A DNA stretch of 64,000 bases, taken from the NCBI GenBank assembly GCA_014161675.1, contig GCA_014161675.1_4760.1. One strand, 5' to 3'. The notes under the pieces were generated by a model. The model was not told the origin of the DNA and did no database searches. It saw nothing but the letters and a program-made list of their open reading frames with translations. Shown here one piece after another: positions 3,549-31,772 of the stretch (positions within the stretch are counted from its first letter, which is position 1; each line of letters starts with the position of its first letter). A program made the translations under genes and the position numbers. Origin of the DNA: a phage.

Positions 3549-3577
3549 AGTATAGGGGATCTCGCGATCCCCGTCAA
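3549..3577 (-). promoter_or_regulatory. early promoter with hairpin in spacer (PeSL-like)
   Basis: minus sense TTGACg - GGGGATCgcgaGATCCCC - TATACT. Confidence 0.5.
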
Positions 3578-3581
3578 GCAT

Positions 3582-4130
3582 TTATTTTAAATTTTTTCGA
3601 ATGTATTCAGACCATTCCTTCCCTGTCATTTCGGACCCGTTCTGGAAACTGAAATATTCATACGGCATCGAGTCAAGATAAAACAGGATCATACATCGCG
3701 CCATATAATACCAATCACGATTAAAGTAAACTACGTTATCACCAGTACCATCAACCCCTTTATCATAACCATCGCGGGTACTGGCGACCCATTGAATAGT
3801 ATCAGTTTTCTCACGGATCGTAACAGGTTCCCAATATCCAGCACATCCAGCATGACCACACGAACAAGTAAGGAAATATTGTCCTTTTGCTTTGTTGTCA
3901 TCCCATTCACGATGGATTGGTTCGATCTCGTGAAACAGTGCTAAGCAATCATGATTATGCAACACTGGCTTACCATCAATCAATGCATGGAATGTATACA
4001 AACGACCCGTAGACAAATAGTTATCTTCTCGCTCTACAAGTTCAATAGCAATCTTTTTAGCTCGTTCTTTGTGTCGTTGTGCTTTACGCTTACGGTTTAA
4101 TGATTTCATATTCACCTCACACATTATCAA
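3582..4130 (-). CDS. hypothetical protein
   Basis: 182 aa ORF between nrdG and nrdD, cysteine cluster CSCGHAGCAGY; own promoter-hairpin element upstream. Confidence 0.45.
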   Translation of the reverse strand: MIMCEVNMKSLNRKRKAQRHKERAKKIAIELVEREDNYLSTGRLYTFHALIDGKPVLHNHDCLALFHEIEPIHREWDDNKAKGQYFLTCSCGHAGCAGYWEPVTIREKTDTIQWVASTRDGYDKGVDGTGDNVVYFNRDWYYMARCMILFYLDSMPYEYFSFQNGSEMTGKEWSEYIRKNLK

Positions 4131-4669
4131 AGGTCGCGATATAGTACATTATGAAAATGAGAACTTGCATTACCAATATTGTAGATAATAAATTCTTCAT
4201 CCGGCGCTTGCGCTACAAATTGAGTATGAGCAACCGCCACAACCTTAAAAATACGATCCGTGATCTTGTGTTTAATTTCTGCCCCTACTTCCATAGGAAC
4301 ATATTCATTTGTTTCTGTTTCAGTCGCAAAACAGCCATCTTCTTCATAAGCACGAACAAATCGATCGCAATCAGTACGCTTAACAAATTCAAGAGTATAC
4401 AATTCTCGTGAATTGTCGGTATAGACCAATACAGAATTATTATGATAGCGAATCACATACAGGTTATTATCATCGTCAATTACGCAAAAGCTACGGATTC
4501 CTTCGCCTTTACTCCAGCAGATATTAACCACAGTTCCTCTAATAAAAAAACTTTCCTTTAAATTAAAACTAGCCAATGTGCTAGCGTGCATTTTAACAAC
4601 AACACCATCGCCAATTTCCAGTTTACGAAGTTTAACTTCTTTGCTCAGTACACAAAACATCATCATCAT
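4127..4669 (-). CDS. hypothetical protein
   Basis: 180 aa ORF; sigma70-like promoter (TTGACA-16-TATAAT, minus sense) at 4699-4726. Confidence 0.45.
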   Translation of the reverse strand: MMMMFCVLSKEVKLRKLEIGDGVVVKMHASTLASFNLKESFFIRGTVVNICWSKGEGIRSFCVIDDDNNLYVIRYHNNSVLVYTDNSRELYTLEFVKRTDCDRFVRAYEEDGCFATETETNEYVPMEVGAEIKHKITDRIFKVVAVAHTQFVAQAPDEEFIIYNIGNASSHFHNVLYRDL

Positions 4670-4738
4670 GTTGTCCTCTCGTTGTTTTCGATGTGAGCAT
4701 TATACATTAGCTAATCATGTTGTCAACACCCCAAAACG

Positions 4739-4763
4739 AAAAAGCCGACCCTTTCGGATCGGC
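4739..4763 (-). terminator. rho-independent terminator after nrdD
   Basis: minus sense GCCGATCCGAAAGGGTCGGC + UUUUU. Confidence 0.6.
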
Positions 4764-4769
4764 TGAAAT

Positions 4770-6632
4770 TTACATGTGCTTAACGCGGTTTACCATCTCG
4801 GAGTGTTTCCCGTGGTTAAATGGACGCAGATCAACAGATCCAAGATATCCACTAACGCGACGGATAACATTCATCTTTTCCAGATTGTCATTGCCGCAAT
4901 CAGGACAAACAAAACCAGACTCGGTTGCTCTCATTTCCTTAGTAGATCCGCATACATGACATACATCAGAAGGAGTATTAACACCGAAGTAGTGCAATTT
5001 ATCCATTGCATAGTCTACTACAGTTTCAAGACCTTTCAGGTTGTTTTTCATGTCTGGGAACTCAACATAAGAGATCATGCCACCGGACGCCAGCCAGTGA
5101 TAATCTTTCTCAAAGTCGATTTTCTCAAATGGAGTGACTTTCCGGTCTACGTCAAGGTGGAATGAGTTGGTGTACCAGTCTTTATCGGTAGCACCCTTAA
5201 CAATACCAAATTTCTCTCTGTCCAGTCGATTAAATCGATAGCAAAGGCTCTCGGCTGGCGTACCGTAAAGACTAAACCCAAGTCCGGTTTCGTCCTTCCA
5301 TTTTTCAGTATAATGACGCAAGATCTTAAGAATATGTTTACCGTATCGCTGCGCATCTTCCGAATCAAACGGATGAACACCAAACAGGACGCTCAATACC
5401 TCATGTAAACCAATATATCCAAGAGAGATACTAGCGCGACCATCTTTCAACACTTCCAAAATTTCATCGTTTTGATGAATACGGAAAAATGCACCTTCGG
5501 TATACAGTACAGGAGCAACATTGGCTTTAGCCCCTTTTAAAGCGTCTACGCGACTCATAAGCGCATCAAAACAAATAGGCAGACGATTCGCTAGCTCTTG
5601 TTCGAATAGCTCAATTCTGCGCATTACAGACGCTTTACCGGCACGACGCGCGGCAATAAGGGCAATACGCGGAAGATTCAGAGTCACAACACCTAAGTTA
5701 TTACGTCCGTCTAATACTTCTTCGCCTTTCTCATTATGCCACACACCCAGGAAGCTACGACAACCCATCGGGCTAACCGGAACACTAGATCCAGTGATGC
5801 TACGGTTATTCTTCGCAGAGATATAATCAGGGTAAAGACGCTTACTAGAACATTCCAATGCAAGTTGCTTAATGTCGTAGTTCGGATCTTCCGGTTTAAG
5901 GTTTAATCCTTCTTCTAAGAACATCACCAGCTTAGGAAACACCGGAGTGATACCATCTTTACCTAAACCTTTAGTTCGAACGTTCAGGATCGCTTTCTGA
6001 ATCAGTTTTTCTTCCCAGCTAGTACCCATACCAAAGGTTAAAGTCACAAAAGGCGTTTGACCGTTGGTGGAGAACAAAGTGTTGATTTCATATTCCAACG
6101 CTTGATACCCGTCTAAAGTTTCTTTTTCTGTCTTCTCTTGTGCATAGAGAGTATCAGCTTTGATTCCGTAGGTTTCGGCATCAGCAAGGTGTTTATGATA
6201 TGTTTTCTCAACATACGGTGCTAACACCTGATCGATGTTTGCGATTGTGGTCCCGCCATATTGATGACTTGCCACCTGTGCGATAATTTGAGCGGTTACA
6301 GCACAAGCAACGCCGATTGATTTCGGACTTTCGATTTGTGCGCTACCCAATTTAAAACCATTCTCTAACATGTCTTTGAGATTAACAAGACAGCAGTTAG
6401 TAAACGGCATAGCGGGTGCATAATCCATATCATGATAATGAATATCACCGTCTACATGCGCTTTATAGATGTGCTCAGGTAACACGGTTTTAGCAATCTG
6501 TTTAGACACAGCACCAGCAATCAGATCTCGACGTGTCGGGAATGTTCGCGCGTCTTTGTTCGCGTTCTCTTTGCTTACTTCGTTTTCTTTACCCGTTGCG
6601 ATTTCTGTAATGTCTTTGATTAGTTTTTCCAT
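4770..6632 (-). CDS. nrdD: anaerobic ribonucleoside-triphosphate reductase, class III, intron-less
   Basis: 620 aa; FTNCCLV, SPMGCRSF and C-terminal glycyl-radical RRVSGYLG motifs; strong similarity to T4 NrdD. Confidence 0.95.
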   Translation of the reverse strand: MEKLIKDITEIATGKENEVSKENANKDARTFPTRRDLIAGAVSKQIAKTVLPEHIYKAHVDGDIHYHDMDYAPAMPFTNCCLVNLKDMLENGFKLGSAQIESPKSIGVACAVTAQIIAQVASHQYGGTTIANIDQVLAPYVEKTYHKHLADAETYGIKADTLYAQEKTEKETLDGYQALEYEINTLFSTNGQTPFVTLTFGMGTSWEEKLIQKAILNVRTKGLGKDGITPVFPKLVMFLEEGLNLKPEDPNYDIKQLALECSSKRLYPDYISAKNNRSITGSSVPVSPMGCRSFLGVWHNEKGEEVLDGRNNLGVVTLNLPRIALIAARRAGKASVMRRIELFEQELANRLPICFDALMSRVDALKGAKANVAPVLYTEGAFFRIHQNDEILEVLKDGRASISLGYIGLHEVLSVLFGVHPFDSEDAQRYGKHILKILRHYTEKWKDETGLGFSLYGTPAESLCYRFNRLDREKFGIVKGATDKDWYTNSFHLDVDRKVTPFEKIDFEKDYHWLASGGMISYVEFPDMKNNLKGLETVVDYAMDKLHYFGVNTPSDVCHVCGSTKEMRATESGFVCPDCGNDNLEKMNVIRRVSGYLGSVDLRPFNHGKHSEMVNRVKHM

Positions 6633-6676
6633 TGTATCACCTATGAAAAAGCGGGATTTCTCCCGCTCGTTGATAG

Positions 6677-7171
6677 TTATTTTACCAGTTCTGCTAATTC
6701 TTTTTCTTTAGCTTCTAGTTCAGCTTTAAGCTGTTTAATCTCTTGTCGCTTCTTATTAGCGGCTTCCTGCTTACTATTTCGGATAACCTGATCTAGATAC
6801 AACTCCCAATCCTGAATATTTTTGATAATGTAACCGTCAACATTAATTGGTCGGAGATTCAGTACAGCTTCCAGTTTAGTTGCAAAAACTTTAATTGCTG
6901 GGGTGAAGTATTCATATTCGTTATCTTCAAACCAATAACCTAGACTTGCATTATCAATACGAAGACGAAGTTCAAGATCAAGGTCTTTATCTTCGGTGTA
7001 TAGGTCTTTTACACACCCCATAGAATTAACAACAACTTTAAAACGAATTTTATCTACACCACCAAACACATCAGTAAGGATACCAGCAATTGAGCTATTA
7101 GCGCAAGATTGGTCGCTGAATGCGTCAAGGTTTTCTTTAGTTACAGTATACCAAACATCTTGTACCCACAT
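6677..7171 (-). CDS. hypothetical protein, paralogous family
   Basis: YWFEDNEYEYFTPAIKVF motif plus C-terminal coiled coil KQLKAELEAKEKELAELVK. Confidence 0.55.
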   Translation of the reverse strand: MWVQDVWYTVTKENLDAFSDQSCANSSIAGILTDVFGGVDKIRFKVVVNSMGCVKDLYTEDKDLDLELRLRIDNASLGYWFEDNEYEYFTPAIKVFATKLEAVLNLRPINVDGYIIKNIQDWELYLDQVIRNSKQEAANKKRQEIKQLKAELEAKEKELAELVK

Positions 7172-7195
7172 AATATAATCCTCTCGTTGTTAAGT

Positions 7196-7229
7196 GGGAG
7201 TATTATAGCATACTCCCTTCGCATGTCAA
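7196..7229 (-). promoter_or_regulatory. early promoter TTGACA-16-TATAAT overlapping GGGAGTAT hairpin
   Basis: minus sense TTGACAtgcgaaGGGAGTATgcTATAATACTCCC then GAGGATTATATTATG. Confidence 0.55.
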
Positions 7230-8404
7230 GCACTAACTTTTTTCTTTACTGCTTTCACCTTCTGGCGAATTGCTCGAATCTCTTCGATCTCTTTTTCAGT
7301 CTCTTTAACAATTTCTTTGCGATTCTGAATATCTGTATCGAGATTATCATCAAGTTTAGGCAGCATGTCAATCAAGAACTTTTTAAAGTCTTTCAGGTTT
7401 CGAATAACAGCACCTTCGCCCATTACCGCAACACCCACACCATCCGGCAGATCACCAAACAGCTTAACCAGTTCAGACAGATGATCATGATCTTCTAGTG
7501 CTTCTTCCGGTTCAGATGGCAGTTCAACAAAGTTATAACGTTCATCATTGCTGATCAAGTGATACCAGCAAAGCCCGAAAGATTTCGGTGTATATTCTAC
7601 ACCATCAATTTCAACCGCGTCAACACTTCCATAATCATCCACTTTAGTTACCTTAAATCCTTGTCCCAGCTTTTGAACAATTTCAACAACATGACTTGAT
7701 ACAGTTTCAGCGGTAAACCAATATGGCAAATTATGCTGATTTGGTTTGTAGCGTTCACCTACTTTAAATCTCTGACCATCCGCTTGCATAGAATGAAATT
7801 GTTGTTTCGTGATTTCCGCGAAGTATTCAAATTCGCTACCGTCAAACAAGCAATTCCATTGATCACAAAAACGGTCCGCCTTAACAGTTTCACCTTTCGC
7901 GGTGATCATGGTAGCCGATCCATGAAATTCTTCTTCAACCAAAAAGCCATATTCGACAAAATCAACAAGTTTCATGGCTTCTTTGTGCTCTGGGTCATGC
8001 TCTCCCCAGAATCGCTTAAATTCTTGCAAACCTTCTGGGGTAAACGAATAACATTTACCTTTTTCAAAGTAAGTCGGCATTGCATCCTCTTTCTTGTTCA
8101 TCGCTTCGTATGCCTCTTTTGAGATACGTTTAAAGTATTTGCGCTCATTGTGCATAATCATAGTAGACCAATAATAAACGATATCCTCAGCGGAATAAAC
8201 TACATCTCCAGCTTCAATAGTAATAACATGACCGTGGTCATCTTTTTCTAATACTTTAAAGCCCTTTTCTACGATTTCAGCAACCCGAATATGACCACGG
8301 CGCGAAGCATCGGTCAGAATAATTGAATAGCGAGAAAAGTCTAGAAACTCATCTTTACCGCCTTCACGGAATGCATAGTAATGACCTTCAAAGAATTTAG
8401 CCAT
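7226..8404 (-). CDS. hypothetical protein, paralogous family, multi-domain
   Basis: 392 aa; repeated NERKYFKRISK / SEFEYFAEITK / NDERYNFVELP motifs; C-terminal coiled coil. Confidence 0.55.
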   Translation of the reverse strand: MAKFFEGHYYAFREGGKDEFLDFSRYSIILTDASRRGHIRVAEIVEKGFKVLEKDDHGHVITIEAGDVVYSAEDIVYYWSTMIMHNERKYFKRISKEAYEAMNKKEDAMPTYFEKGKCYSFTPEGLQEFKRFWGEHDPEHKEAMKLVDFVEYGFLVEEEFHGSATMITAKGETVKADRFCDQWNCLFDGSEFEYFAEITKQQFHSMQADGQRFKVGERYKPNQHNLPYWFTAETVSSHVVEIVQKLGQGFKVTKVDDYGSVDAVEIDGVEYTPKSFGLCWYHLISNDERYNFVELPSEPEEALEDHDHLSELVKLFGDLPDGVGVAVMGEGAVIRNLKDFKKFLIDMLPKLDDNLDTDIQNRKEIVKETEKEIEEIRAIRQKVKAVKKKVSA

Positions 8405-8428
8405 AATATAATCCTCTCGTTGTTTAGA

Positions 8429-8464
8429 TGGGAGTATCTTACTACTCCCGTTTCATCATGTCAA
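8429..8464 (-). promoter_or_regulatory. early promoter with GGGAGTA hairpin
   Basis: TTGACA (minus) at 8459-8464 and hairpin GGGAGTAtcttacTACTCCC. Confidence 0.45.
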
Positions 8465-8467
8465 GCG

Positions 8468-9046
8468 TTAAAGTGACTTTTTAATCTCTTTCAGTTCTTC
8501 CACTTTCTCGGCGCTGAATTTAGCGTAGGTATCATGTCGAATAATTTCACTTTCAAGAAAGGTTTCCAGTCGAGATCTATTTTCAATAAGGAACTCTTTC
8601 AGGTCTTCCGCGTTCTTGACAAAGATTTTATTGTCGGTAATGTCATCTTCAATCGCAAAGGAGATAGAGCGAACTTTACCAAACAAGTTAATCAGATCTT
8701 CCAGAGATTCTTCTTTCTTAACTGGTTTCATTTCTTCAAACTGCTTTTTAGTGATGCGTTTAAAGTATTTGCGCTCGTTTGCAGCAATCAGAACAGATGC
8801 ACCTTCATACCCATGAGTTTCTACCAGATACACACGCCCCATCGCATCAACAGTGAGAACTTTAAAGCCGTTACAAAGCACGTCATACAAGAACTTATTA
8901 TGTTGCGGACATCGTTTGATAAATTCTGCGGCTGTTTCTGCACTACGGAAAGTATAGTAACGACCTCGTTCAAAAACAGCATCATTTGAAGACTTAGCCG
9001 GATACAATTTATACGTTTTCTGTACCATAATATAATCCTCTATCAT
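8468..9046 (-). CDS. hypothetical protein, paralogous family
   Basis: NGFKVLTVDAMGRVYLVE...ANERKYFKRITKKQFEEM closely parallels 7226..8404. Confidence 0.55.
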   Translation of the reverse strand: MIEDYIMVQKTYKLYPAKSSNDAVFERGRYYTFRSAETAAEFIKRCPQHNKFLYDVLCNGFKVLTVDAMGRVYLVETHGYEGASVLIAANERKYFKRITKKQFEEMKPVKKEESLEDLINLFGKVRSISFAIEDDITDNKIFVKNAEDLKEFLIENRSRLETFLESEIIRHDTYAKFSAEKVEELKEIKKSL

Positions 9047-9375
9047 TTCACTAATTGAACAGCACGGAACAGAATGCGCTCACACGGAAGCAGCATAAAT
9101 TCCCAACGCGGGTCAAAGTCTTTAGCGGTGTATGTTTTCCCATCAACCGCTATTTCACTTACATAACCAACAGGTGACACTTTAAGAACAGTAAACCCAT
9201 TCTTGATGATTTCGTAGGTATCTTTCACCCCTTCGTATTCATCATCTAAGAAGTCTTTATGTGCTTGCTCAGATTTAAAAACATAGGCCACACCGGATTT
9301 AAACATCTTACGCATTGTTGATTCTCCTTCTTGATTAGATGGGAGTATTTTACTACTCCCATTTCTTATTGTCAA
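9043..9375 (-). CDS. hypothetical protein, paralogous family (short)
   Basis: NGFTVLKVSPVGYVSEIAVDGKTY motif. Confidence 0.45.
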   Translation of the reverse strand: MTIRNGSSKILPSNQEGESTMRKMFKSGVAYVFKSEQAHKDFLDDEYEGVKDTYEIIKNGFTVLKVSPVGYVSEIAVDGKTYTAKDFDPRWEFMLLPCERILFRAVQLVK

Positions 9376-9378
9376 CTA

Positions 9379-9867
9379 CTATCTTAATCTTTGTATGAAT
9401 TGTTTCTTATACTTCTTCGTGATTTCTTCTCTTGTATCAGCGTCGCAGTAATCGAAACCTTCTGCGTCCATAATAGCAACCATCTCCGCGCGTGTCAAGC
9501 GTGAAAATCGTTTTACTTTATCAACAGCATATTGAGGATGTAAATGATTGTTGGTGTAGTCTCCTTTGATGTAATTAACATAGTTTGTAGCCCAAACAAC
9601 GAAATCAGCACCTAAAGCACCAACACCAAACCGTTTAAAGTCTCCGGTCAACGATCCTTCTAGTCGGTTGCAACACGAATGAAGCAATCCCCTTACGCGG
9701 CCTTGCCCTTTACCATCTAGATCGTGGTCGTGGTCAAGATGGTTTTTGCTCATATCCTCAAAAAGTGGCAATTGACAAAGGGGGCAAATGCCCCCCTGTT
9801 TTTCGAATAGTTCTTGTTTGTACTCTTTAGCACTCTTAGCAGTCAGTAACATAAATTCACCCTCCAA
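9379..9867 (-). CDS. 49: endonuclease VII (Holliday junction resolvase)
   Basis: CPLCQ...HLDHDHDL...RGLLHSCCN zinc/HNH-like motif as in T4 gp49. Confidence 0.85.
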   Translation of the reverse strand: MEGEFMLLTAKSAKEYKQELFEKQGGICPLCQLPLFEDMSKNHLDHDHDLDGKGQGRVRGLLHSCCNRLEGSLTGDFKRFGVGALGADFVVWATNYVNYIKGDYTNNHLHPQYAVDKVKRFSRLTRAEMVAIMDAEGFDYCDADTREEITKKYKKQFIQRLR

Positions 9868-9876: not shown

Positions 9877-10170
9877 TTAACCATTAATCTTGTTTTTGAC
9901 TACAAAGGATCTGAACTCATCAAAACCACCTATATAATCACCATTATAGAAAATCTGCGGCATGGTGGCAATAACTTCTACCCCTGCGCGATCCTGAATG
10001 TCGGCAATGATAGAATCAATCTTTACCGGACGACCGTTTTCGTCTACACCATCATTAACCGGAATGTAGATGTAAGGGATCTTACGCGATTCACAAAGGC
10101 GCTTTGCATTCTGGCAATACTTACAGTTGTAACCTTCAAAACCAAAAATTTCTACCATGTTATACCTCAA
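9877..10170 (-). CDS. nrdC: thioredoxin/glutaredoxin NrdC
   Basis: 97 aa, CKYC active site, PQIFYNGDYIGGFDE glutaredoxin fold motif. Confidence 0.8.
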   Translation of the reverse strand: MRYNMVEIFGFEGYNCKYCQNAKRLCESRKIPYIYIPVNDGVDENGRPVKIDSIIADIQDRAGVEVIATMPQIFYNGDYIGGFDEFRSFVVKNKING

Positions 10171-10979
10171 TCTACGTTAGTTACATAAACTTCTTGCGTA
10201 TCAGAAGACTTACCACCTGAACGATCTAGGCAATAGGTCTTATTCAACAGGACGCAGTTTAAATCATTCCGCTTGATAAAGTCAAGAAGATGATCATTTA
10301 CCTTTCCCTTATGATGCGTGACATTACTGATACCAAACTGAAAACCACGCGCCATAATAGATTCTACCCACTGATAGAATTTAATCTCTTCCTCGTCACT
10401 CCAGAACTTATTATATTCCGCAGAAGTGATAAGATACGGCGGGTCCAAATAAACGAAATCACCTGGCAAGATCTCGATCTCGTCATATCGTCCAGAAGTA
10501 AAAATGATTCGACCGTCTTTGTTTTCTTCCTTAAAATTCAGGACACGCTCTACCGCGTTTTCGTTAAAAGTCCGGCGACCAAAATTAGCATTAAATTCGC
10601 CCTTCCGGTTATGGCGGTTAATGTTGCTAAAACTATGCTGAATCAACACAAACAGCGATAGCGGATCTGGATTCTCGTTATACGTCTTACGGAATGTCAT
10701 GTAAGCGTCTTTATCTTCGCGAGACAAACCATTTTCGGCAATAATCCGCTTGATCGTAGAAACCGGATCAGGACACTCGTCAATCGCTTTGTACGCGTCA
10801 ATTAAGCGGTGATCATAGTCATTAGCCAGAACATCCCCTTCGACGTACAGAGACACGCTCAAGCCGCCACAAAAGGCATCAACAAAGCGGTTATAGTGCT
10901 TAGGGAAATACTTACTAACACCAGGCAATAACTTTTCCTTATTGCCAGTATAGGGAATTAAACCTAATGCTTTCTTCAT
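10167..10979 (-). CDS. dam: DNA adenine methyltransferase (alpha class, DPPY)
   Basis: FCGGLSV motif I and DFVYLDPPYL motif IV; similar to T4 Dam from memory. Confidence 0.9.
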   Translation of the reverse strand: MKKALGLIPYTGNKEKLLPGVSKYFPKHYNRFVDAFCGGLSVSLYVEGDVLANDYDHRLIDAYKAIDECPDPVSTIKRIIAENGLSREDKDAYMTFRKTYNENPDPLSLFVLIQHSFSNINRHNRKGEFNANFGRRTFNENAVERVLNFKEENKDGRIIFTSGRYDEIEILPGDFVYLDPPYLITSAEYNKFWSDEEEIKFYQWVESIMARGFQFGISNVTHHKGKVNDHLLDFIKRNDLNCVLLNKTYCLDRSGGKSSDTQEVYVTNVD

Positions 10980-13204: not shown

Positions 13205-13245
13205 TTTGATTCTCCTTAAGAAAGTGTGTTTCGTTTTGATGTGTG

Positions 13246-13274
13246 TAGTATAGGGGATCAGTGATCCCCTGTCA
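13246..13274 (-). promoter_or_regulatory. early promoter with hairpin in spacer (PeSL-like)
   Basis: minus sense TTGACA - GGGGATCActgATCCCC - TATACT; same architecture as 3549..3577. Confidence 0.5.
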
Positions 13275-13291
13275 ATAACTTTTTTATGATT

Positions 13292-13853: not shown

Positions 13854-14107
13854 AGTTTCCTCAACCAGTTATTAAAGCGAGCAAACCATGACGCTTTTCG
13901 TGCTTCTTTTACTTTATGTGCACGCAAACCACTGAAACACCATTCATAATCATCACTGAAACATGATTCAACAGGAACACCCGCATTTCGTAGTTCTCTG
14001 GTCTTTATCATGAATCCTTGACATAAGGGTCGACCTTCAACAATGATAGGAAGTTTAACTTTTTCCATGAAAGTATACCCAGCACGGTCAATAATTTCAA
14101 TCTTCAT
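13850..14107 (-). CDS. hypothetical protein, tandem paralog A
   Basis: MKIEIIDRAGYTFMEKVKLPIIVEGR... near-identical N-terminus to 14126..14323. Confidence 0.5.
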   Translation of the reverse strand: MKIEIIDRAGYTFMEKVKLPIIVEGRPLCQGFMIKTRELRNAGVPVESCFSDDYEWCFSGLRAHKVKEARKASWFARFNNWLRKL

Positions 14108-14125: not shown

Positions 14126-14323
14126 TTATACCGCCCAGGCTTCATTTGCACGAAAACACCATTCATACTCAGGAAAATAACCTTTAATTGGCACGCCAGC
14201 TTTTTGTAGTTCCTGCGTTTCTACAAGATAATCAAGCCCATAACGACGACCTTCCACGATGATAGGAAGTTTAACGCCATTCATGAAAGAAAATCCACCG
14301 TCATCAATAATTTCAATTTTCAT
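14126..14323 (-). CDS. hypothetical protein, tandem paralog B
   Basis: MKIEIIDDGGFSFMNGVKLPIIVEGR... Confidence 0.5.
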   Translation of the reverse strand: MKIEIIDDGGFSFMNGVKLPIIVEGRRYGLDYLVETQELQKAGVPIKGYFPEYEWCFRANEAWAV

Positions 14324-14567: not shown

Positions 14568-14998
14568 TTTGTGATCTCCTTATACTCAACACACCATAAG
14601 CGGGTAGCCCATGATAAACGCTCATAACGCTGGCAGAAATCGGACCATAGATATTGTGTACCGTCTTGCATGGTTGAAATATGCGTTTTCTCTCCAACTT
14701 TCACGAAAGAAGTATTCGATTTTGTGATCTCGACCGGAGTATATCCGAAAGCGGGTTCCAAGCCAACATCTGAACTAAATGCCAATTTAACAGAATTTGT
14801 TTTTCTGACCGCTGTCCGGTTTCCTTCTGGGTATAGCACAGCAGGTTTAGCGCCTAAGCGGATAAACTCAGTATTTTTAATAAACAGAATATCATGATAA
14901 CCGTCATATTCCGACACTTCCATAGTAACAGGAAAATCGACATGTGCTAAACCTGGTAGATCTCGCATATCATGAAATGTAGCCATCAACTTTTTCAT
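14564..14998 (-). CDS. hypothetical protein, C-terminal domain paralogous to 15009..15254
   Basis: ITKSNTSFVKVGEKTHISTM...LSWATRLWCVEYKEITK. Confidence 0.45.
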   Translation of the reverse strand: MKKLMATFHDMRDLPGLAHVDFPVTMEVSEYDGYHDILFIKNTEFIRLGAKPAVLYPEGNRTAVRKTNSVKLAFSSDVGLEPAFGYTPVEITKSNTSFVKVGEKTHISTMQDGTQYLWSDFCQRYERLSWATRLWCVEYKEITK

Positions 14999-15008
14999 CT
15001 TGTATTCC

Positions 15009-15254
15009 TCACTCTTCTGTAATTACTTCATATTCAATTTTCCATACATCAATCGCCCAGCTTAAAAGCTCATACGATTTACAGAAAGATGACCAAATAT
15101 ACTGTTTTCCGTGCATCGTTGTTATGTGTGTATTCTCACCAACTTCAACGAAAGACATATTTGACTTTGTGATAACTATAGGAATGCGGCCGAATGGTGG
15201 CGGTATTACTGATTCGTTGGTCTTCATTCTATATTCCTCACTCTTCTGTTTCAT
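15009..15254 (-). CDS. hypothetical protein, paralog of C-terminal half of 14564..14998
   Basis: ITKSNMSFVEVGENTHITTM...LSWAIDVWKIEYEVITEE. Confidence 0.45.
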   Translation of the reverse strand: MKQKSEEYRMKTNESVIPPPFGRIPIVITKSNMSFVEVGENTHITTMHGKQYIWSSFCKSYELLSWAIDVWKIEYEVITEE

Positions 15255-15736: not shown

Positions 15737-15837
15737 CTTTGATTCTCCTTAGTTGGTATGTGTGCATTATAGCACTATGATTTTCATTGTCAACAACTAA
15801 AAACAAAAAAGGCTACCCCGAAGGATAGCCCATAAAA

Positions 15838-16614: not shown

Positions 16615-16668
16615 AAAATTTCCTCACAAGAAAAGCCCCAATTAAGGGGCATTGATTGATAATATTAC

Positions 16669-18237: not shown

Positions 18238-18471
18238 TTTTGATTATATTTTATTCACGTCCATTTGTATAGTAGTGTTTGAATCGACCTTTGCTAAACT
18301 AGTTAAACATAGTAACCAATTCACCATCCCTTTCCAATGATAACCCTTCCTCGTCTTAGACGGGTCTTCCGATTCGGCAGTAATTGAACACGCGAAAGTA
18401 TGAGGAAGCCAAATAGTTGTGTTAATGCTAGTATTCTTTTACTTCTGGTATGCATCCCACGGTGACTAACA

Positions 18472-21346: not shown

Positions 21347-21937
21347 TCAATAGCGTTTAGTTTTAAGAATGCCTTTACTCTTTAGATGGTTAGCCTTTTT
21401 TAGTACGTCATCAGCATAGCCTAACCCAGCTTTATAGTTCCATCCAGCATTGTAAGAAGCTAGCGCGAGTCGGATATTACCGTTTCTAACATCCAGCCAG
21501 TATGCTAACTCATCCATCGCGTAGAATGCAGAAACCTCGCGATTCATGATAAAGTTGATAGTCTGGCGATCACTCATTTTAACACCGCGCTTTGCATTTT
21601 TCGCTTTCACCGTTTTAAGGTAATTTTGAAATAATCCATAAGCATGATGATTTTTCTTTGGTGCTAAGTTTGCACCCGCGCTTGATTCTTGCCATGCGAT
21701 ACCCGCCAGGATGTGACCTAAACCCTTTCCGTTATAGCGAATATTCGGATGGTCCTTTTTCAACTTACCGCTTTTCTCGAATTGCTCGCCGTATTGATAG
21801 GCGAAATGTAAATTATCTAGTTGGTGTGCTGTAAAGTTGTCTATCGGCGCTTTTTTGATCGGTGCGCTAGTCGATGCGTGTGTAGCACCAACGGCTAGTG
21901 ACAGACTCAATACTATCGCTTTTAGAACTTTTAACAT
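21347..21937 (-). CDS. secreted lytic transglycosylase (SLT domain)
   Basis: signal peptide; catalytic AWQESS motif, GLFQ and YNAG motifs. Confidence 0.65.
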   Translation of the reverse strand: MLKVLKAIVLSLSLAVGATHASTSAPIKKAPIDNFTAHQLDNLHFAYQYGEQFEKSGKLKKDHPNIRYNGKGLGHILAGIAWQESSAGANLAPKKNHHAYGLFQNYLKTVKAKNAKRGVKMSDRQTINFIMNREVSAFYAMDELAYWLDVRNGNIRLALASYNAGWNYKAGLGYADDVLKKANHLKSKGILKTKRY

Positions 21938-22023
21938 TAATTTCTCCTGTTTGGCTTAACTTTCTGATTCCATAATATAGCCCTATCACCAGAAAGTCAA
22001 GCATTATTTTTAACCAATTTCCA

Positions 22024-22446
22024 TTATTGGTCTACCTTCAAAACAACCGCCGACATTTTACCCGCCAGTCGTTTTGGATTCTCTATAATCATTCGGCAGC
22101 ATAGACCGTGATATGGCTTACCCTCTTCGATTAGATCTACTGTCATCCCGATCCACATGTTACCGTCAGTAATTTCTAATCGATTCGGTCGGTCTTCCAT
22201 TTTCAGGAAGTCGAAGATCTCCGGCAAACGAGTTTCTATCTTATTGAATAGTTCCATTGTCTTATGTTCATCGATATGACGATCGGTTAGACGGTCGATC
22301 ATATGCGGACTAAAGCGAATGAAAATATACTCACCGTAACCATTATTCAAGCACTTTTCTTTGATTTGTGCGTTAGTCTTACGCATTTCAGTTTCGAAGA
22401 ATCTGCGCAGCTTGCTACGGCGAACGTGTACATTAATTGTTTCCAT
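22024..22446 (-). CDS. regB: site-specific endoribonuclease RegB
   Basis: RRSKLRRFFETE...GRLEITDGNMW...CRMIIENPKRLAGK matches T4 RegB from memory; start at METINV. Confidence 0.8.
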   Translation of the reverse strand: METINVHVRRSKLRRFFETEMRKTNAQIKEKCLNNGYGEYIFIRFSPHMIDRLTDRHIDEHKTMELFNKIETRLPEIFDFLKMEDRPNRLEITDGNMWIGMTVDLIEEGKPYHGLCCRMIIENPKRLAGKMSAVVLKVDQ

Positions 22447-24018: not shown

Positions 24019-24612
24019 TTAAACATATTCAGCAACAACATTATGTTTAAAATTACCGCTCATTTTTGGATTTGGATTTTTCAATCGACTATGTATTAAA
24101 TTTTTGTTGTATCCGGTTGCTTTAGACGCTTCGCCAATACTTTGATAAACAACACCATTAACACGAATCGGACGAGACTTCTTAAACAGTTTATTCAATC
24201 CGGCATCATATGCATGGTTTTGGTTTTCTTGTCTCGTTGCGATCTCAAGATTCCAAACACAATTACAAGATTTTACCCCACTTTTATGATTAATTTCAAG
24301 CCCTTCACAATCACCTATAAAGTGTTCAGCAACTAGTCTATGAATATAGCGATATTTCTTAGTTTCCCCGTCATGCAAGCATATATTATAATAACCATCA
24401 CCAGCGCGTTTAGGTCGGAGTAGTTTACCTTTAACACGTTTTATAGTAGGGAACTCACCAAATTGATTTCGCTGGATAAACGGAATCTCGCGGTCTAATG
24501 AACGGATTCGACCATAGTTAGACACTTGATAAAAACTTTCATAGCCTTTAATTGGCTTCCATATCTCAGGAATTTCTACACCATCAATAACAACAAGTTT
24601 AAATTCTTCCAT
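24019..24612 (-). mobile_element. free-standing HNH homing endonuclease with NUMOD4-like N-terminus
   Basis: YESFYQVSNYGRIRSL (NUMOD4-like), HRLVAEHF...INHKSG...NLE...ENQNH (HNH). Confidence 0.75.
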
Positions 24613-26370: not shown

Positions 26371-26371
26371 A

Positions 26372-27990: not shown

Positions 27991-28186
27991 GTCACCGTTT
28001 TGTAAAGAAACACAATAAAATCCAAGACAAGAAAGACAGTGTAAATGATCATCGTCAAGACAGTAAACACTGTCAAATTTTCATCGTTAGTTAATTCATA
28101 GTCGCCCGTCCATACAATCACAAGATATAGCATTGAAAGAATGGAAGCACCTACGAAGTTAAAAAAACATATTCTTGAGCGTCATA

Positions 28187-28369
28187 TTAACAATCCTCGC
28201 GGCTTAAGTCAACAGCAATTGCATACAGCATAATGAATATGCTAGCAGATCCGAGAATCAATGCACCGTCACATTTTGAAACTCGCTCATCAAAATGCAA
28301 CATTATCCATCCGAGGATGTTAAAGGCGCACACCGCGCCTATGTTATCTAACCAATTAATCTTTTTCAT
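28187..28369 (-). CDS. small membrane protein
   Basis: 60 aa hydrophobic. Confidence 0.35.
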   Translation of the reverse strand: MKKINWLDNIGAVCAFNILGWIMLHFDERVSKCDGALILGSASIFIMLYAIAVDLSREDC

Positions 28370-28377
28370 AATATACC

Positions 28378-28704
28378 TTAGAAAGAAACCGTTTTCAAGA
28401 AATCCAGATTTTCAGTACCGAAAACAGAAAAGTAGTGTTTTCCTTTTTCGGTTTTAGAGAAAGCGATTGTCTTCTCTACATGGTGACGGAAGCCAGACAG
28501 ACGATCACCCAGGTCAAGGCGGCAAGCGTAAGTAGTGCCGTTTTCGAAAGTAACCTCGATTTGAGTTTTGTCATATTCGCTTTCATAGGCTTTTGCTGCC
28601 GCGTCCTGTGCTTTACGCTCGAAGTCTTCGAAGTGGAATACTTCGTTTGCGTTAGCGAATACAGAAGATTCAGAGAAGATAACTTTAACAGATACTGGTT
28701 TCAT
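28378..28704 (-). CDS. hypothetical protein
   Basis: 108 aa; promoter + conserved leader upstream. Confidence 0.5.
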   Translation of the reverse strand: MKPVSVKVIFSESSVFANANEVFHFEDFERKAQDAAAKAYESEYDKTQIEVTFENGTTYACRLDLGDRLSGFRHHVEKTIAFSKTEKGKHYFSVFGTENLDFLKTVSF

Positions 28705-28783
28705 TTTGATACTCCTTAGTAGTTCGTGTTTCGTTTCGATGGGTGTATTATGCTATACACCCTATCGCGTGTCAACAACTTTT

Positions 28784-28972
28784 TTAGTCTTTTTTCAAAA
28801 TTTTTAAGGCAGTTTCTACAGCACCTTTCCAACCCTCCCACATAATGGACATAGTAATGAAGTTAAAGCACCCGCAGGAATCAACCTTTTTAGAGATAAA
28901 CCATTCAACAAATCCTTCGCTCATACCATGCTCTTTAGCGGATTCGCGTAATTGTTCAATTTGGTCTTCCAT
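28784..28972 (-). CDS. hypothetical protein
   Basis: 62 aa ORF. Confidence 0.4.
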   Translation of the reverse strand: MEDQIEQLRESAKEHGMSEGFVEWFISKKVDSCGCFNFITMSIMWEGWKGAVETALKILKKD

Positions 28973-28981
28973 AGTATCACC

Positions 28982-29182
28982 TCAACACTTAACATTATTC
29001 AAACGATTTTGAAAGTACATATAGCAAGCATAATTTTGTTTTGGCTGTACCGTGTCAGATAGACACGCTTTTACAGCCTCGCGGTCCGATGGATCTACAC
29101 CCTCAGCGTTAAGCAATGCTAAGATCTGATAATAGCGTACTCTCAGTTGCGTTAATGGTTTCTCTCCCATAAACCCCTCCAA
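28982..29182 (-). CDS. hypothetical protein
   Basis: 66 aa ORF. Confidence 0.4.
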   Translation of the reverse strand: MEGFMGEKPLTQLRVRYYQILALLNAEGVDPSDREAVKACLSDTVQPKQNYACYMYFQNRLNNVKC

Positions 29183-29410
29183 TTAAAGTTGATCAGCGAT
29201 GTATGCGGTGCAAGCGCGGAGTTTTGCCATAGCACCGCCTTTCATGTCACTAGCACCGACAATGTTCATGATCTCTAAGCGATCCGCTGGATTTAAGCGG
29301 GTAGCCCAGATCTGATTAGCCAGTTCCAGTTTACCCATTTGAGGTTCAATTTCTAACATTTCACGCTCAAAGTCGATGATTTCTTTTGCTGCTTCTTTAA
29401 AGTTGATCAT
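29183..29410 (-). CDS. hypothetical protein
   Basis: 75 aa; promoter-hairpin element + leader upstream. Confidence 0.45.
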   Translation of the reverse strand: MINFKEAAKEIIDFEREMLEIEPQMGKLELANQIWATRLNPADRLEIMNIVGASDMKGGAMAKLRACTAYIADQL

Positions 29411-29477
29411 TTTGATTCTCCCGTTTCGTTGATGATTGTATTGTAGGGGAGTTATACTCCCCTGTCAACACTTTTTA

Positions 29478-29663
29478 TCAGAAATATGCGATATAGTTTG
29501 CCAGTCCTACAGAGTCATCATTCGGCATTGCTTTTACTGCTAGTTCAAACCCTGCTTCAACTTTCTGTTTAGCGGATTCTTCGTTATAACCCCAGATGAC
29601 CAGAATAGCTACTACGTTTTCTTTGCTTACTGCTTTCAGTGCTTTAGTGATGCGACGTGCCAT
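29478..29663 (-). CDS. hypothetical protein
   Basis: 61 aa; terminator + promoter + conserved leader upstream. Confidence 0.45.
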   Translation of the reverse strand: MARRITKALKAVSKENVVAILVIWGYNEESAKQKVEAGFELAVKAMPNDDSVGLANYIAYF

Positions 29664-29764
29664 AATTTGATTCTCCGTTTAAGAAAGTGTGTTTCGTTTC
29701 GATGGGTGTATTATGCTATAGGCGTGATCTGGTGTCAACAACTTTTTTAAAAATTTTAGGCAAT

Positions 29765-29788
29765 AAAAAAGCCACTCCGAAGAGTGGC
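29765..29788 (-). terminator. rho-independent terminator
   Basis: minus sense GCCACTCTTCGGAGTGGC + UUUUUU. Confidence 0.6.
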
Positions 29789-29938
29789 TTATAGGGAAGG
29801 TAGCGAATCTTCCTTGTCTCCAACCTGCTAGCGGCCTAGCAAGTGAATGCTTTAGCGTACCGGATCACCCCATACGCTGTAATAAATGCGGCTAGGTGAC
29901 GTCCAAATCATTCTAACCGCGCTGTCTTTAGTTCACTA

Positions 29939-30157
29939 TTATTTATATCGCTTTCTCTCGCGACGTTTTTGATCTTCTTCCTTGATAGAGTTAAACGCAT
30001 CAAAAAGACACATGACACTGATAATGAACATAACCGTATTTTCTACGATATCCCACGGCTTCGCATCAGTACAGATCCCCCAAACGGTAAGAAATGCAAA
30101 TAGTGCAGAAGAGATCACAAGCATGATACTTGCTAAGATATAAAAAGTCATTTTCAT
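29939..30157 (-). CDS. small membrane protein
   Basis: 72 aa, two TM helices, basic C-terminus. Confidence 0.4.
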   Translation of the reverse strand: MKMTFYILASIMLVISSALFAFLTVWGICTDAKPWDIVENTVMFIISVMCLFDAFNSIKEEDQKRRERKRYK

Positions 30158-30348
30158 GGTTTTACCTCAATTCTTCGATATTCATCACACATCCACGCAG
30201 TAAGCAAGAATCCCAGCACATAAGCAACAAAATACGTTAATGCTTCTTCTGGTTTCGTGCTATGTATCATCAGTAAACCAGCGAGAAAGGTCTTAACAAT
30301 TACATTTAAAATAATTAGCCACGCAAATAATTTCATCGTTTGCCCCAT
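30154..30348 (-). CDS. small membrane protein
   Basis: 64 aa. Confidence 0.4.
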   Translation of the reverse strand: MGQTMKLFAWLIILNVIVKTFLAGLLMIHSTKPEEALTYFVAYVLGFLLTAWMCDEYRRIEVKP

Positions 30349-30572
30349 TTCGGTCGAGTCTTTTCAAACTTATACATTCCGTAACAATCTCGAATCATCC
30401 ACGTAACAAGAGCACCAGTCAACACAGACAATACACAGAAGAAGTAAAACGGTCCGGTTGCATTATCAACATGAGCAAGCCATGTAAAGAAAACACATGC
30501 AAGGAACGTGAAGAACATCATAAAGCACAAGAAAGCAAAATATTTTATACTACTCATAGCGCCACCATACAA
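30333..30572 (-). CDS. small membrane protein
   Basis: 79 aa. Confidence 0.4.
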   Translation of the reverse strand: MYGGAMSSIKYFAFLCFMMFFTFLACVFFTWLAHVDNATGPFYFFCVLSVLTGALVTWMIRDCYGMYKFEKTRPKWGKR

Positions 30573-30660
30573 CAGATCACAAGAAACCCCAACGCAATAA
30601 GAATTGCATCAAATTTAGTGAACTCCTGTCCACCTATCAACATCATTCGTTCTATTTCGT

Positions 30661-30903
30661 TCATAGCGTACAAAGCCATTTAAAAGCACCACATAAAGCG
30701 AGCAGAATACTAGGTATAAACGAGACCATAACAAGTTTGCAAAAATCATCTAAGGTAACGCCGGAATAGCTACCTACTGTAACAACACCTATCATCAGAC
30801 ACAGAAAGAAAACAAATGCAACCAGAAACAAAGTATTGCTAAACAGTTTAGTGATCATTAGACACCCCACGACGATCAATTTCAAAAACTTTTTTACCAT
30901 CAA
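30661..30903 (-). CDS. small membrane protein
   Basis: 80 aa. Confidence 0.4.
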   Translation of the reverse strand: MMVKKFLKLIVVGCLMITKLFSNTLFLVAFVFFLCLMIGVVTVGSYSGVTLDDFCKLVMVSFIPSILLALCGAFKWLCTL

Positions 30904-31051
30904 CGAAGCATGTCACAACTGCCTCGTTGACTTCCGCAAATTGTTGTGTTACCCACTTAAGGTCAGAGCGAAACAATGTTCTATTAATAACAAATGTTTT
31001 ACCGCTCTTATCCTTACCCATAAATTTTGCTTTAACCATATCCAATTCCAT
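30848..31051 (-). CDS. hypothetical protein
   Basis: 67 aa ORF. Confidence 0.35.
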   Translation of the reverse strand: MELDMVKAKFMGKDKSGKTFVINRTLFRSDLKWVTQQFAEVNEAVVTCFVDGKKVFEIDRRGVSNDH

Positions 31052-31060
31052 ATTATCACC

Positions 31061-31219
31061 TTATTTGCTAATCGCTAAACCCAATCCGAAGAGAGCACCC
31101 GATGCTACAGTATACCCGAAAGTTTCAAATGCAGTAAAGATATCTAAGCCACCAGCTAACAGAGTTGCAGTAAACAGAGTACCAGCTACGAACATAAAAG
31201 TTTTACCGATGAATTTCAT
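31061..31219 (-). CDS. small hydrophobic protein (52 aa)
   Basis: own translation MKFIGKTFMFVAGTLFTATLLAGGLDIFTAFETFGYTVASGALFGLGLAISK behind conserved leader; below ORF-track cutoff. Confidence 0.4.
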   Translation of the reverse strand: MKFIGKTFMFVAGTLFTATLLAGGLDIFTAFETFGYTVASGALFGLGLAISK

Positions 31220-31285
31220 TTTGATTCTCCTTTCGTTTGTTTGTGGGGGTATCTTACTACCCCCGTTTCATGTTGTCAACTATTT

Positions 31286-31663
31286 TTAAGAATATTTTAC
31301 TTCGTCTACAATGTCTTTCATGACATTGATTTCCATTCCGGTCAGAACACGTTGGAACATGTGCTGCACATACGCTTTCAGGTATTCATTTGATGGCTTA
31401 CTATCGAAAGTCTTTTTAGTGTAGTAGTCATCACCGAAAGCTACTGTAATTACATTTTCGTCGTCGTTCCAAGCGATATAAGCAAATTTGCCGTTATCCC
31501 AGAAGCGAGCACTAATTGCTACTTTTGTTGAATCGAATCCTACTTCGCTGTGAGATTCAAGAACTACTTGCGTGCCAGTTTCTTTATGAATGTAGTATCG
31601 GGATACTAAGTCAAAGTTACGGGTGTAGTGACATTCGAATTTATCTTTAAACATCATCATCAT
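31286..31663 (-). CDS. hypothetical protein
   Basis: start at MMMMFKD behind conserved leader; promoter and terminator upstream. Confidence 0.5.
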   Translation of the reverse strand: MMMMFKDKFECHYTRNFDLVSRYYIHKETGTQVVLESHSEVGFDSTKVAISARFWDNGKFAYIAWNDDENVITVAFGDDYYTKKTFDSKPSNEYLKAYVQHMFQRVLTGMEINVMKDIVDEVKYS

Positions 31664-31740
31664 TTTGATTCTCCTAAGTGTGTTTCGTTTCGATATGTGC
31701 ATTATGCTATAGTCGTTTATGGTTGTCAACACCTAAAAAC

Positions 31741-31765
31741 AAAAAACCCCGAAAAAATTTCGGGG
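31741..31765 (-). terminator. rho-independent terminator after 57B
   Basis: minus sense CCCCGAAATTTTTTCGGGG + UUUUUU. Confidence 0.6.
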
Positions 31766-31772
31766 TATAGAA

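Follow-up and report, generated by a model that had tools for sequence, protein, structure and literature searches.

The 64,000-nucleotide stretch of phage DNA analysed here, referred to as the window (NCBI GenBank assembly GCA_014161675.1, contig GCA_014161675.1_4760.1), carries a long series of small genes, many of which stand behind near-identical promoter-bearing units that we call cassettes. A 4-kb piece of the window (28000-32000) shares 97-98% nucleotide identity with approximately 59 phages of the RB49 group, including pEJ01, FL38, JK32, RB49, ECD7 and GEC-3S, and a 25-kb piece gave the same match pattern; judged by this identity, the phage is a Krischvirus (family Straboviridae), an RB49-like T4-type coliphage. 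According to the annotation of GEC-3S and RB49, the cassette region consists of accessory genes, running from nrdG/nrdD through endonuclease VII, dam, gp38, rI, tk, vs, regB and dmd to 57B and gene 1. Transcription is on the minus strand throughout this region, small hypothetical genes predominate, and the sign of the GC skew flips at approximately 36 kb, where the plus-strand baseplate genes start. The GEC-3S record also carries promoter and terminator annotations at places orthologous to the cassettes of the window. The relatives were taken from GenBank records; a search of the viral contig collection via RegB gave one locus.

Near-consensus TTGACA-N16/17-TAnnnT promoters were located in the intergenic gaps, and our own promoter scan and a tool scan agreed on 17 intergenic minus-strand cassettes within 3504-31766 and one plus-strand cassette at 44840-44939 (Table 1). 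A preliminary description of this DNA had reported more than a dozen such units, all on the minus strand, and this count is borne out; the eighteenth cassette lies outside the range given there and on the other strand, where it heads small genes without known relatives that are inserted in the baseplate gene block. All 18 promoters match the TTGACA/TATAAT consensus at 10-12 of 12 positions with a spacer of 16-17 nucleotides (nt), and within 12-32 kb, both scans found sites with at least 11 of 12 matches exclusively on the minus strand. An A/T-rich tract precedes the -35 element in nearly all cassettes, for example AAAAAAGTTG-TTGACA or TTTTTAGGTG-TTGACA.

Table 1. Cassettes and selected genes of the window, with the position of the stem-loop and the sequence elements in 5' to 3' order along the strand given
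Feature	Position	Strand	Stem-loop	Elements or remarks
Cassette T31729	31661-31766	minus	upstream	rho-independent terminator 31766-31746; TTGACA 31729-31724; N17; CATAAT; leader ATCGAAACGAAACACAC-TTA-GGAGAATCAAA; ATG 31663
Cassette O31279	31217-31284	minus	around -10	TTGACAACATGAA..; stem GGGGGTA/TACCCCC, -10 TAAGAT in loop; leader ACAAACAAACGAAA-GGAGAATCAAA; ATG 31219
Cassette T29738	29661-29790	minus	upstream	terminator 29790-29769; TTGACA; CATAAT; class I leader; GGAGAATCAAATT-ATG 29663
Cassette S29468	29408-29473	minus	in spacer	GGGGAGTATAACTCCCC = -35/-10 spacer; TACAAT; leader ATCAACGAAAC-GGGAGAATCAAA; ATG 29410
Cassette O28775	28702-28790	minus	around -10	stem GGGTGTAT/ATACACCC around CATAAT; class I leader; GGAGTATCAAA-ATG 28704
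Cassette O22843	22784-22855	minus	around -10	stem GGGGGTA/TACCCCC around TAATAT; leader ATCGAAACAAA-GGAGTATTAAA; ATG 22786
Cassette 22000	21935-22005	minus	none, no terminator	TTGACT-N17-TATTAT; divergent leader; GGAGAAATTA-ATG 21937; directly downstream of regB
Cassette T18202	18141-18241	minus	upstream	terminator 18241-18216; TTGACA; CATAAT; leader ATCGACAAAAAA-GGAGAATCAAAA; ATG 18143
Cassette 16959	16888-16970	minus	no clear stem, no terminator	TTGACA-N17-CATAAT; class I variant ATCGAAACGAGATACAC; GGAGAATCAAA-ATG 16890
Cassette T15793	15734-15831	minus	upstream	terminator 15831-15810 after gp38; TTGACA-N16-TATAAT; leader ATACCAACTAA-GGAGAATCAAAG; ATG 15736; stem-in-spacer cassette instead in G2248
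Cassette S13275	13202-13286	minus	in spacer	GGGGATCACTGATCCCC = spacer; TATACT; class I leader; GGAGAATCAAA-ATG 13204
Cassette O12600	12535-12610	minus	around -10	stem GCGGTTAT/ATAGCCGC (one G-T wobble) around TATAAT; leader ATCAAATGAACGATGT-GAGGATTATATT; ATG 12537
Cassette O9375	9313-9386	minus	around -10	stem GGGAGTA/TACTCCC around TAAAAT; leader ATCTAATCAAGAA-GGAGAATCAACA; ATG 9315
Cassette O8464	8402-8472	minus	around -10	stem GGGAGTA/TACTCCC around TAAGAT; leader ATCTAAACAACGA-GAGGATTATATT; ATG 8404
Cassette O7229	7169-7240	minus	around -10	stem GGGAGTAT/ATACTCCC around TATAAT; leader ACTTAACAACGA-GAGGATTATATT; ATG 7171
Cassette T4726	4667-4766	minus	upstream	terminator after nrdD, ~4764-4741; TTGACAACATGA..-TATAAT; leader ATCGAAAACAACGA-GAGGACAAC; ATG 4669
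Cassette S3578	3504-3590	minus	in spacer	CTTGAC; GGGGATCGCGAGATCCCC in spacer; TATACT; leader CATCAAGACGAGATACAAC..-GGAGAATCAAAT; ATG 3506
Eighteenth cassette	44840-44939	plus	terminator	TTGACA-N16-TATAAT; leader ATCTAAACAACG-GAGGATAAATT; ATG 44937
regB, GGAG-specific endoribonuclease	22024-22446	minus		Pfam PF10715, E 1.9e-48; start region GGAGAATAAAA-ATG
Endonuclease VII gene	9379-9867			annotation
Dam methylase gene	10167-10979
gp38 adhesin module	15761-16668	minus		gene 15838-16614 and two flanking terminators; missing in G2248

Folding of each cassette and a terminator scan together placed a stem-loop in 15 of the 17 minus-strand cassettes: in five, a rho-independent terminator with a T-run lies upstream and the promoter is free of stems; in three, the stem-loop takes up the spacer; and in seven, the -10 element sits inside the loop of a stem. 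The remaining two have neither terminator nor stem. The preliminary description had arranged a terminator and a promoter hairpin in series; the two hairpins are instead alternatives, found in five and ten cassettes, respectively, with both present in none of the 17. The GC-rich stems that it named, GGGGATC..GATCCCC and GGGAGTA..TACTCCC, are present with perfect pairing, and GGGGGTA..TACCCCC, GGGTGTAT..ATACACCC and GCGGTTAT..ATAGCCGC occur as well. All ten embedded stems pair perfectly despite their sequence differences, the fourth pair being G-C, A-T or T-A and the second G-C or C-G (the pairs were tabulated by hand, as the MAFFT alignment did not keep 7-bp and 8-bp stems in register). The six relatives retain the stems, and the loops and the spacer bases outside the stems vary; the substitutions within stems are sense-strand G-T wobbles (12600 in the window, 9375 in GEC-3S, and 12600 in RB49 and JSE). 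These wobbles, together with the retention of stems with variable loops, point to pairing at the RNA level and argue against a sequence-specific DNA operator. Because the embedded stems lie upstream of the predicted transcription start, they would be missing from the cassette's own RNA and could act only on read-through RNA or as DNA. Two of the three spacer-filling stems (13247-13275 and 3549-3578, minus strand) have GATC sites in paired positions (GGGGATC..GATCCCC). A Dam methylase gene is present in the phage, and methylation could affect these two promoters or their structure, two cases being too few to judge.

The predicted leaders that follow the promoters are 22-40 nt long, end in a Shine-Dalgarno (SD) sequence and ATG in all cases, and start with ATC in 13 of 17. 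For comparison, approximately 88 minus-strand start regions were tabulated (17 promoter-proximal and 71 internal), with the gene starts of RB49 mapped onto the window. The leaders contain 66% A+C as compared with 43% at internal start regions (p = 5e-9), and with a folding energy of -0.043 versus -0.114 kcal/mol per nt (p = 1e-5), they are nearly structure-free. The class I leader of the preliminary description, CACACATCGAAACGAAACACAC, was recovered where stated, with five matches at no more than three mismatches (13224-13245, 16908-16929, 28724-28745, 29687-29708 and 31678-31699) and none in 100 shuffles, and GGAGAATCAAAATG gave 10 matches as against 0.85 expected. Repeat finding returned families of 61-, 44- and 67-nt units covering promoter and leader; families D1-D4 and D9-D12 are dispersed repeats. 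The SD part of class I, GGAGAATCAAA-ATG, is strictly linked to promoters: GGAG[AT]AT[CT]AA occurs in 12 of the 17 promoter-proximal start regions and in none of the 71 internal ones (Fisher p = 3e-11). The class II motif GAGGATTATATTATG is also strongly over-represented (15 matches versus 0.33 expected), but its start-proximal form GAGGATTATATT-ATG is found at three promoter-proximal genes (7169, 8402 and 12535) and at approximately eight internal genes, including 15436 and 27769, two of the five examples cited for it, which are promoterless. Since it stands at internal operon genes, it represents a general ribosome-binding region, and we reject it as a second class of cassette leader. The leader proper is best seen as a composite, in terms of its sequence, of a 5' initial transcribed sequence, ATCGAAACGAAAC(AC), and a promoter-linked SD module, GGAGAAUCAAA.

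The repeated units are, with little room for doubt, promoter early stem-loops (PeSLs), the regulatory cassettes found at the front of early transcription units in the hyperplastic region (variable, with accessory genes) of RB49-type phages. PeSLs were defined in RB49 and phi1 by a strong sigma-70-like promoter preceded by an AT-rich tract, by a G(n)/C(n) stem-loop that takes one of five alternative positions, and by a 3' SD sequence with ATG (Arbiol et al. 2010, Genome Biol Evol 2:140; PMC2839356); RB49 carries approximately 51 of them, mainly in hyperplastic regions, and the concept was later widened to other T4-like phages, with the RB49 type having a near-perfect TTGACA-N17-TATAAT promoter (Comeau et al. 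2014, PMC4122927). As the window belongs to the RB49 group at 97-98% identity and PeSLs were defined in members of that very group, the likeness to such cassettes proposed in the preliminary description was correct, and the element is already known. Our main finding is in this respect a rediscovery, which adds one more PeSL-bearing genome and little more. For the published cassettes, promoter activity in E. coli was demonstrated with cloned PeSL193/192 and 206/205 of RB49/phi1, terminator activity with one stem (211/210), and recombination between neighbouring PeSLs with mini-circles detected by polymerase chain reaction and sequencing, whose crossovers lie between the -10 element and the ATG (PMC2839356). 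Arbiol et al. did not discuss RegB or a function of the leader, and treated the SD sequence merely as the 3' boundary of the element.

In the working that we propose, a cassette combines an A/T-rich tract, a host sigma-70 promoter (TTGACA, 16-17 nt, TAnnnT), one GC-rich stem-loop or none, placed either upstream as a canonical terminator or within the promoter (filling the spacer or bracketing the -10 element), and a leader of 22-40 nt that is A/C-rich and essentially unstructured, usually starts with ATC and ends with SD and ATG. Host RNA polymerase would start at an A seven bases past the -10 element, as the geometry of the cassettes and reporter assays of a few RB49/phi1 PeSLs suggest, and the stem-loop would act on incoming upstream RNA, so that the preceding unit is ended or capped. 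Lastly, near-identical repeats of approximately 60-100 bp, spaced every 0.3-6 kb, would allow homologous recombination to delete, insert or swap the intervening genes while expression is kept; given the efficient homologous recombination of such phages, genes between cassettes could be exchanged and still be correctly expressed.

The preliminary description had also proposed a comparison across phages for cassette-bounded shuffling. We aligned 1-36.5 kb of the window with GEC-3S, RB49, ECD7, JSE, G2248 and JK32 and read the junctions of 13 different insertion, deletion or replacement events. Four are insertions of homing endonucleases (in nrdD of JSE, at 10170 in GEC-3S, at 24019-24612 and at 25777), and four others are unrelated to cassettes, namely two replacements in a paralogous family at 1.2-2.3 kb, a gene deletion at 18240-18470 and an insertion at 34263. 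Two further events are bounded by conserved start regions rather than promoters (15021-15222, and breakpoints 14108 and 27785 at class II motifs). Only three touch a cassette (3601, 4644 and 15761), as compared with approximately one cassette-adjacent event expected by chance, and one of them is clean: in G2248, one stem-in-spacer cassette, TTGACA-CGGGGAGAAATCCCCG-TATAAT, stands in place of the gp38 gene with both its terminators and of the cassette 15793 promoter, and sequence identity restarts inside the common leader at CATACCAACTAAGGAGAATCAAA. This gp38 swap is a good example of the published mechanism; the other two of the three are cassette-adjacent cases.

Three points weigh against assigning the full set of PeSL functions to the units of the window. 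The cassette-linked events are a minority and not clearly above chance, so that the role in shuffling is weakly supported here. The ten embedded stems are followed on the sense strand by ACAAAC, ATCGAA, ATCTAA or TATACT, with no U-tract after any of them and no sense-strand call in the terminator scan, and hence are not canonical intrinsic terminators. Finally, promoter and terminator activity would be extrapolated from the few RB49/phi1 cassettes assayed by others.

Several of the differences between relatives are of interest in themselves. The gp38 receptor-binding adhesin gene is a terminator-bracketed module in the accessory region and is wholly missing in G2248 (L006 20816-20852). The non-coding stretch 18240-18470 (minus strand) is what is left of a 2.1-kb gene, of which G2248 (L006 22434-24578) and JK32 (L007 18407-20545) have the intact version; in the window, its first ~150 nt and last ~50 nt are kept and the middle is gone, as in RB49, and the 2-kb difference adjoining cassette 18202 was accordingly rejected as a cassette-adjacent insertion, being an internal gene deletion unrelated to the cassette. 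At 14994-15249 (minus strand), an additional small gene (15009-15254) is flanked on either side by a 27-nt start region, ACAGAAGAGTGAGGAATAYARRATGAA, which RB49 and GEC-3S have only once and without the gene; by the look of these junctions, it was gained or lost through recombination between ribosome-binding regions and not promoters. The 197-residue open reading frame (ORF) at 24019-24612 (minus strand) is missing from RB49, GEC-3S, ECD7 and G2248, which have 17 nt there, and is annotated as an HNH endonuclease in JK32, and in JSE, the spot is occupied by another homing endonuclease, which makes the interval between nrdC.11 and vs.6 a hotspot for such genes. At 1200-2900 (minus strand), four or five small paralogous genes form a tandem family whose starts share ~31 nt (TAxGTTTTACCAAxTTCCCATTTCATAATAT on the plus strand; repeat families D5 and D17), and the relatives show block replacements inside it at 1231-1482 and 2033-2291. 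The neighbouring small genes whose 77-nt 5' ends lie at 14031-14107 and 14247-14323 (minus strand; 79% identical, repeat family D8) look like a local duplication.

The 5' half of the leader is found well beyond the RB49 group. The pattern TTGACA-N17-19-ANNNT-N6-ATCGAAACGAAA occurs at 45 loci (48 sites) in viral contigs, 39 of which are not Krischvirus, and the loci collapse to approximately 36 distinct promoter contexts on contigs of 13-366 kb with 25-63% GC, including the Cronobacter T4-like phages S13/LPCS28 and jumbo phages of ~350 kb of the Munch/7t3 type. Four scrambles of matched composition, placed in the same frame and in two cases retaining the ATC start, gave 1, 2, 3 and 0 loci, and it is on these controls that the enrichment in viral contigs rests; 596 Gb of bacterial genomes yielded only 15 loci. 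When 121 unbiased occurrences of the 15-mer were examined, 20 had a -35/-10 pair ending exactly 6 nt upstream, with none at any other offset from 0 to 14 (the bare 15-mer scan, being dominated by chance matches, was used only after this filtering by context). Position -1 is a pyrimidine in 35 of the 36 contexts, and in some phages, the 12-mer directly precedes a transfer RNA (tRNA) gene or a conserved non-coding stretch. A full-text literature search for the 12-mer found no description of it.

These observations suggest that the leader's 5' half, ATCGAAACGAAAC(AC), may be a selected initial transcribed sequence that acts through initiation, promoter escape or RNA 5'-end properties, and that neither serves as a signal for translation nor simply results from recombination. 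We give this interpretation, which complements the identification as PeSLs, serious weight while stopping a little short of calling it probable. The contrast with scrambles and bacterial genomes, the fixed 6-nt offset and the pyrimidine at -1 all speak for it; its occurrence before tRNA and non-coding sequence makes a link with transcription or the RNA 5' end more likely than one with translation; and the strong early promoters A1 and A3 of T7 start similarly. On the other hand, we can name no mechanism that would require the exact sequence, a small promoter module might have spread horizontally (although the flanks are unrelated), and the motif is degenerate within the window, where the exact 15-mer occurs in only three cassettes. 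The simplest reading would nevertheless be a favoured initial transcribed sequence of strong phage promoters. More broadly, and somewhat more tentatively, the first 12-15 bases may constitute an undescribed, phage-enriched start, locked in position with its A exactly 7 nt past the -10 element, which recurs at the sigma-70-type promoters of dozens of phages that are unrelated to one another (T4-like, jumbo and T5-sized ones as well as contigs of ~40-90 kb; 25-63% GC), before messenger, transfer and non-coding RNA alike. It would have a sequence-specific role in initiation, escape or 5'-end protection, and in RB49-type phages, it would be fused to a near-consensus RegB/S1 SD module, thereby coupling strong early expression to shut-off. 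If confirmed, this common start would be an unrecognised determinant of initiation or of RNA 5'-end behaviour, useful in promoter design and in the annotation of phage early genes.

Some of the other contigs deserve description. Several of 13-50 kb and 46-50% GC (L130, L131, L134, L143, L144, L148, L149, L155 and L056) have the promoter and ATCGAAACGAAA, followed by a conserved non-coding stretch, CATCGATGCGGCA...CCGCGCCAGA.., with no SD or ATG, which may be an unannotated phage non-coding RNA. In the viral isolates L142 and L150 (147-149 kb), what appears to be a tRNA gene, GCAGTAGCTCAGACGGTAGAGCAGCA.., lies 3 nt beyond the promoter and 12-mer. Cronobacter T4-like and jumbo-phage contigs (L027, L099, L109 and L011/L161) have PeSL-like embedded stems, GAGGTCATG..CATGACCTC around the -10 element, GGGTTGAC..GTCAGCCC over the -35 element and CCAGTACT..AGTACTGG, each followed by the ATCGAAACGAAA start, and promoters with such stems occur beyond the phages studied so far.

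For the 3' half of the leader, a post-transcriptional role fits the sequence, as the promoter-linked SD module resembles the site cut by T4 RegB with host S1, an 11-nt single-stranded RNA, GG*AGRAYARAA, found mostly in early-gene start regions (Durand et al. 2006, PMC1702504). The module GGAGAAUCAAA matches the consensus GGAGRAYARAA at 10 of 11 positions. GGAG, corresponding to the invariant GGA and a fourth position that is G and rarely U, is present in 12 promoter-linked start regions, each the first after an early-type promoter and in a weakly structured leader, and the 3' part AAUCAAA matches RAYARAA at six of seven positions, with C at position 8, where, as at 6 and 11, A is strongly preferred. 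Cleavage between G and A in GGAG would inactivate the first cistrons of the immediate-early transcripts together, minutes into infection. The exclusive association with promoters, the unstructured leaders and the presence of regB in the window, its own start region reading GGAGAAUAAAA here, in agreement with the consensus at 11 of 11 positions, and GGAUAAUAAAA in RB49 and JSE, with the RB49 site reported as cleaved in vivo (review PMC3014915), are in its favour. We nonetheless consider such targeting possible rather than probable: the mismatch falls on one of the three most conserved A positions of the T4 targets, the RegB-resistant RNA of T4 gene 1 has C at positions 8 and 10 (PMC1702504), RB49 RegB has diverged from T4 RegB (PMC3014915), and the link with promoters could arise because the SD sequence travels with the cassette. 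Weak cleavage and evasion are equally compatible with the invariant C at position 8, and the module could therefore be either a moderate RegB target or tuned to escape cutting. Should targeting be confirmed, the exclusive link between cassette and RegB site would relate the 'mobile promoter' idea to a timed degradation of early mRNAs.

It is also conceivable that the near-identity of the leaders has no function of its own and is maintained because cassettes repeatedly recombine with, or convert, one another and have recently been duplicated, but we think this unlikely. The mini-circle crossovers fall between the -10 element and the ATG, that is, in the leader (Arbiol et al. 2010, PMC2839356), certain pairs of cassettes agree at 89% over 61 nt, upstream A-tract included (family D1), and identity in the G2248 swap restarts within the leader, all of which speaks for such exchange. 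It would not account for the 12-15-mer in identical register in unrelated phages that have no other sequence in common, nor for a composition and lack of structure that are common even to leaders of differing sequence. Another proposal, that the embedded palindromes act as DNA, as binding sites of a dimeric regulator or recombination protein, or as cruciforms cut by endonuclease VII, is improbable in our view. Endonuclease VII is encoded in the window, and Arbiol et al. (2010, PMC2839356) raised the possibility of a GGGG...CCCC-binding protein; yet the stems differ between cassettes with compensatory changes and the loops vary freely, which marks a structure, not a site recognised by its sequence; the stem variants are exclusively wobbles on the sense strand, where the other strand would give A-C mismatches, and the terminator-type cassettes manage without any embedded palindrome.

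The weakest candidate, which we regard as very improbable, is the common translational operator of the preliminary description, taken here to mean that the conserved start regions, above all class II (RNA form GAGGAUUAUAUUAUG), are operators of the T4-type repressor RegA: RB49 does encode RegA (RB49p027), class II is over-represented, and it is AU-rich beside the AUG, as RegA sites are in T4, but neither class I nor class II motifs occur at any of the five RB49 orthologues of the T4 RegA targets 44, 45, 62, rpbA and regA, and the 5' half of class I stands upstream of tRNA and non-coding sequence in other phages, so that class II finds no support as a RegA operator and the operator idea none for the leader.

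One further feature lies next to a cassette. Between the stop codon of ORF 29939-30157 and cassette 29738, approximately 170 nt of non-coding sequence (29765-29945, minus strand) fold into three hairpins and the terminator, with a minimum free energy of -63.6 kcal/mol (z = -3.9 versus shuffles). Rfam, searched with the whole window at gathering thresholds, returned no family, with sub-threshold noise only around 29.6-30.1 kb; the stretch is a candidate small RNA derived from the 3' untranslated region that closes the operon headed by cassette 31279.

Compared with known systems, the SD module resembles the RegB/S1 sites of T4 (PMC1702504) in being an 11-nt single-stranded stretch that overlaps the SD sequence of early genes, in a phage that has regB with a perfect start region of its own; it differs in that nearly all copies in the window have C in place of A at position 8 and the enzyme is a diverged RegB. 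The T7 promoters A1, A2 and A3 are likewise strong sigma-70 promoters used immediately by the host polymerase. The A1 transcript begins ATCGAGAGGGACAC; that of A3, which follows the discriminator GTACCAC, begins ATGAAACGACAG. A2 and A3 share TTGACAACATGAAGTAA with cassettes 31279 and 4726, which read TTGACAACATGAA... Unlike the cassettes, the T7 promoters stand three in tandem at the genome end and are not dispersed, have no embedded stem-loops, and place 7 nt between the -10 element and the start as against 6 here. Morons and integron-like cassettes, with which Arbiol et al. compared PeSLs, are also small genes with their own promoter and terminator that are gained and lost as units, whereas in PeSLs, the conserved regulatory sequence is itself the proposed recombination substrate, with no integrase or attachment site. 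The PeSLs of PST/T4 and nt-1/KVP40 (PMC4122927) share the composite promoter-terminator organisation, the location in hyperplastic regions and the association with genes that differ between phage pairs, but have a weaker consensus (TTTACW or TTGYVH) and other stems (A3-4G3..C3T3-4 and AGNA..TCNT), and the cassettes of the window are of the RB49 type. From the PeSLs of RB49/phi1 themselves, they differ in nothing essential: both have a near-perfect sigma-70 promoter, an A/T-rich tract, G(n)-loop-C(n) stems in equal positional subclasses and a 3' SD sequence with ATG, and both precede small genes that lack known relatives and lie in the hyperplastic region or, in a few cases, in the virion block.

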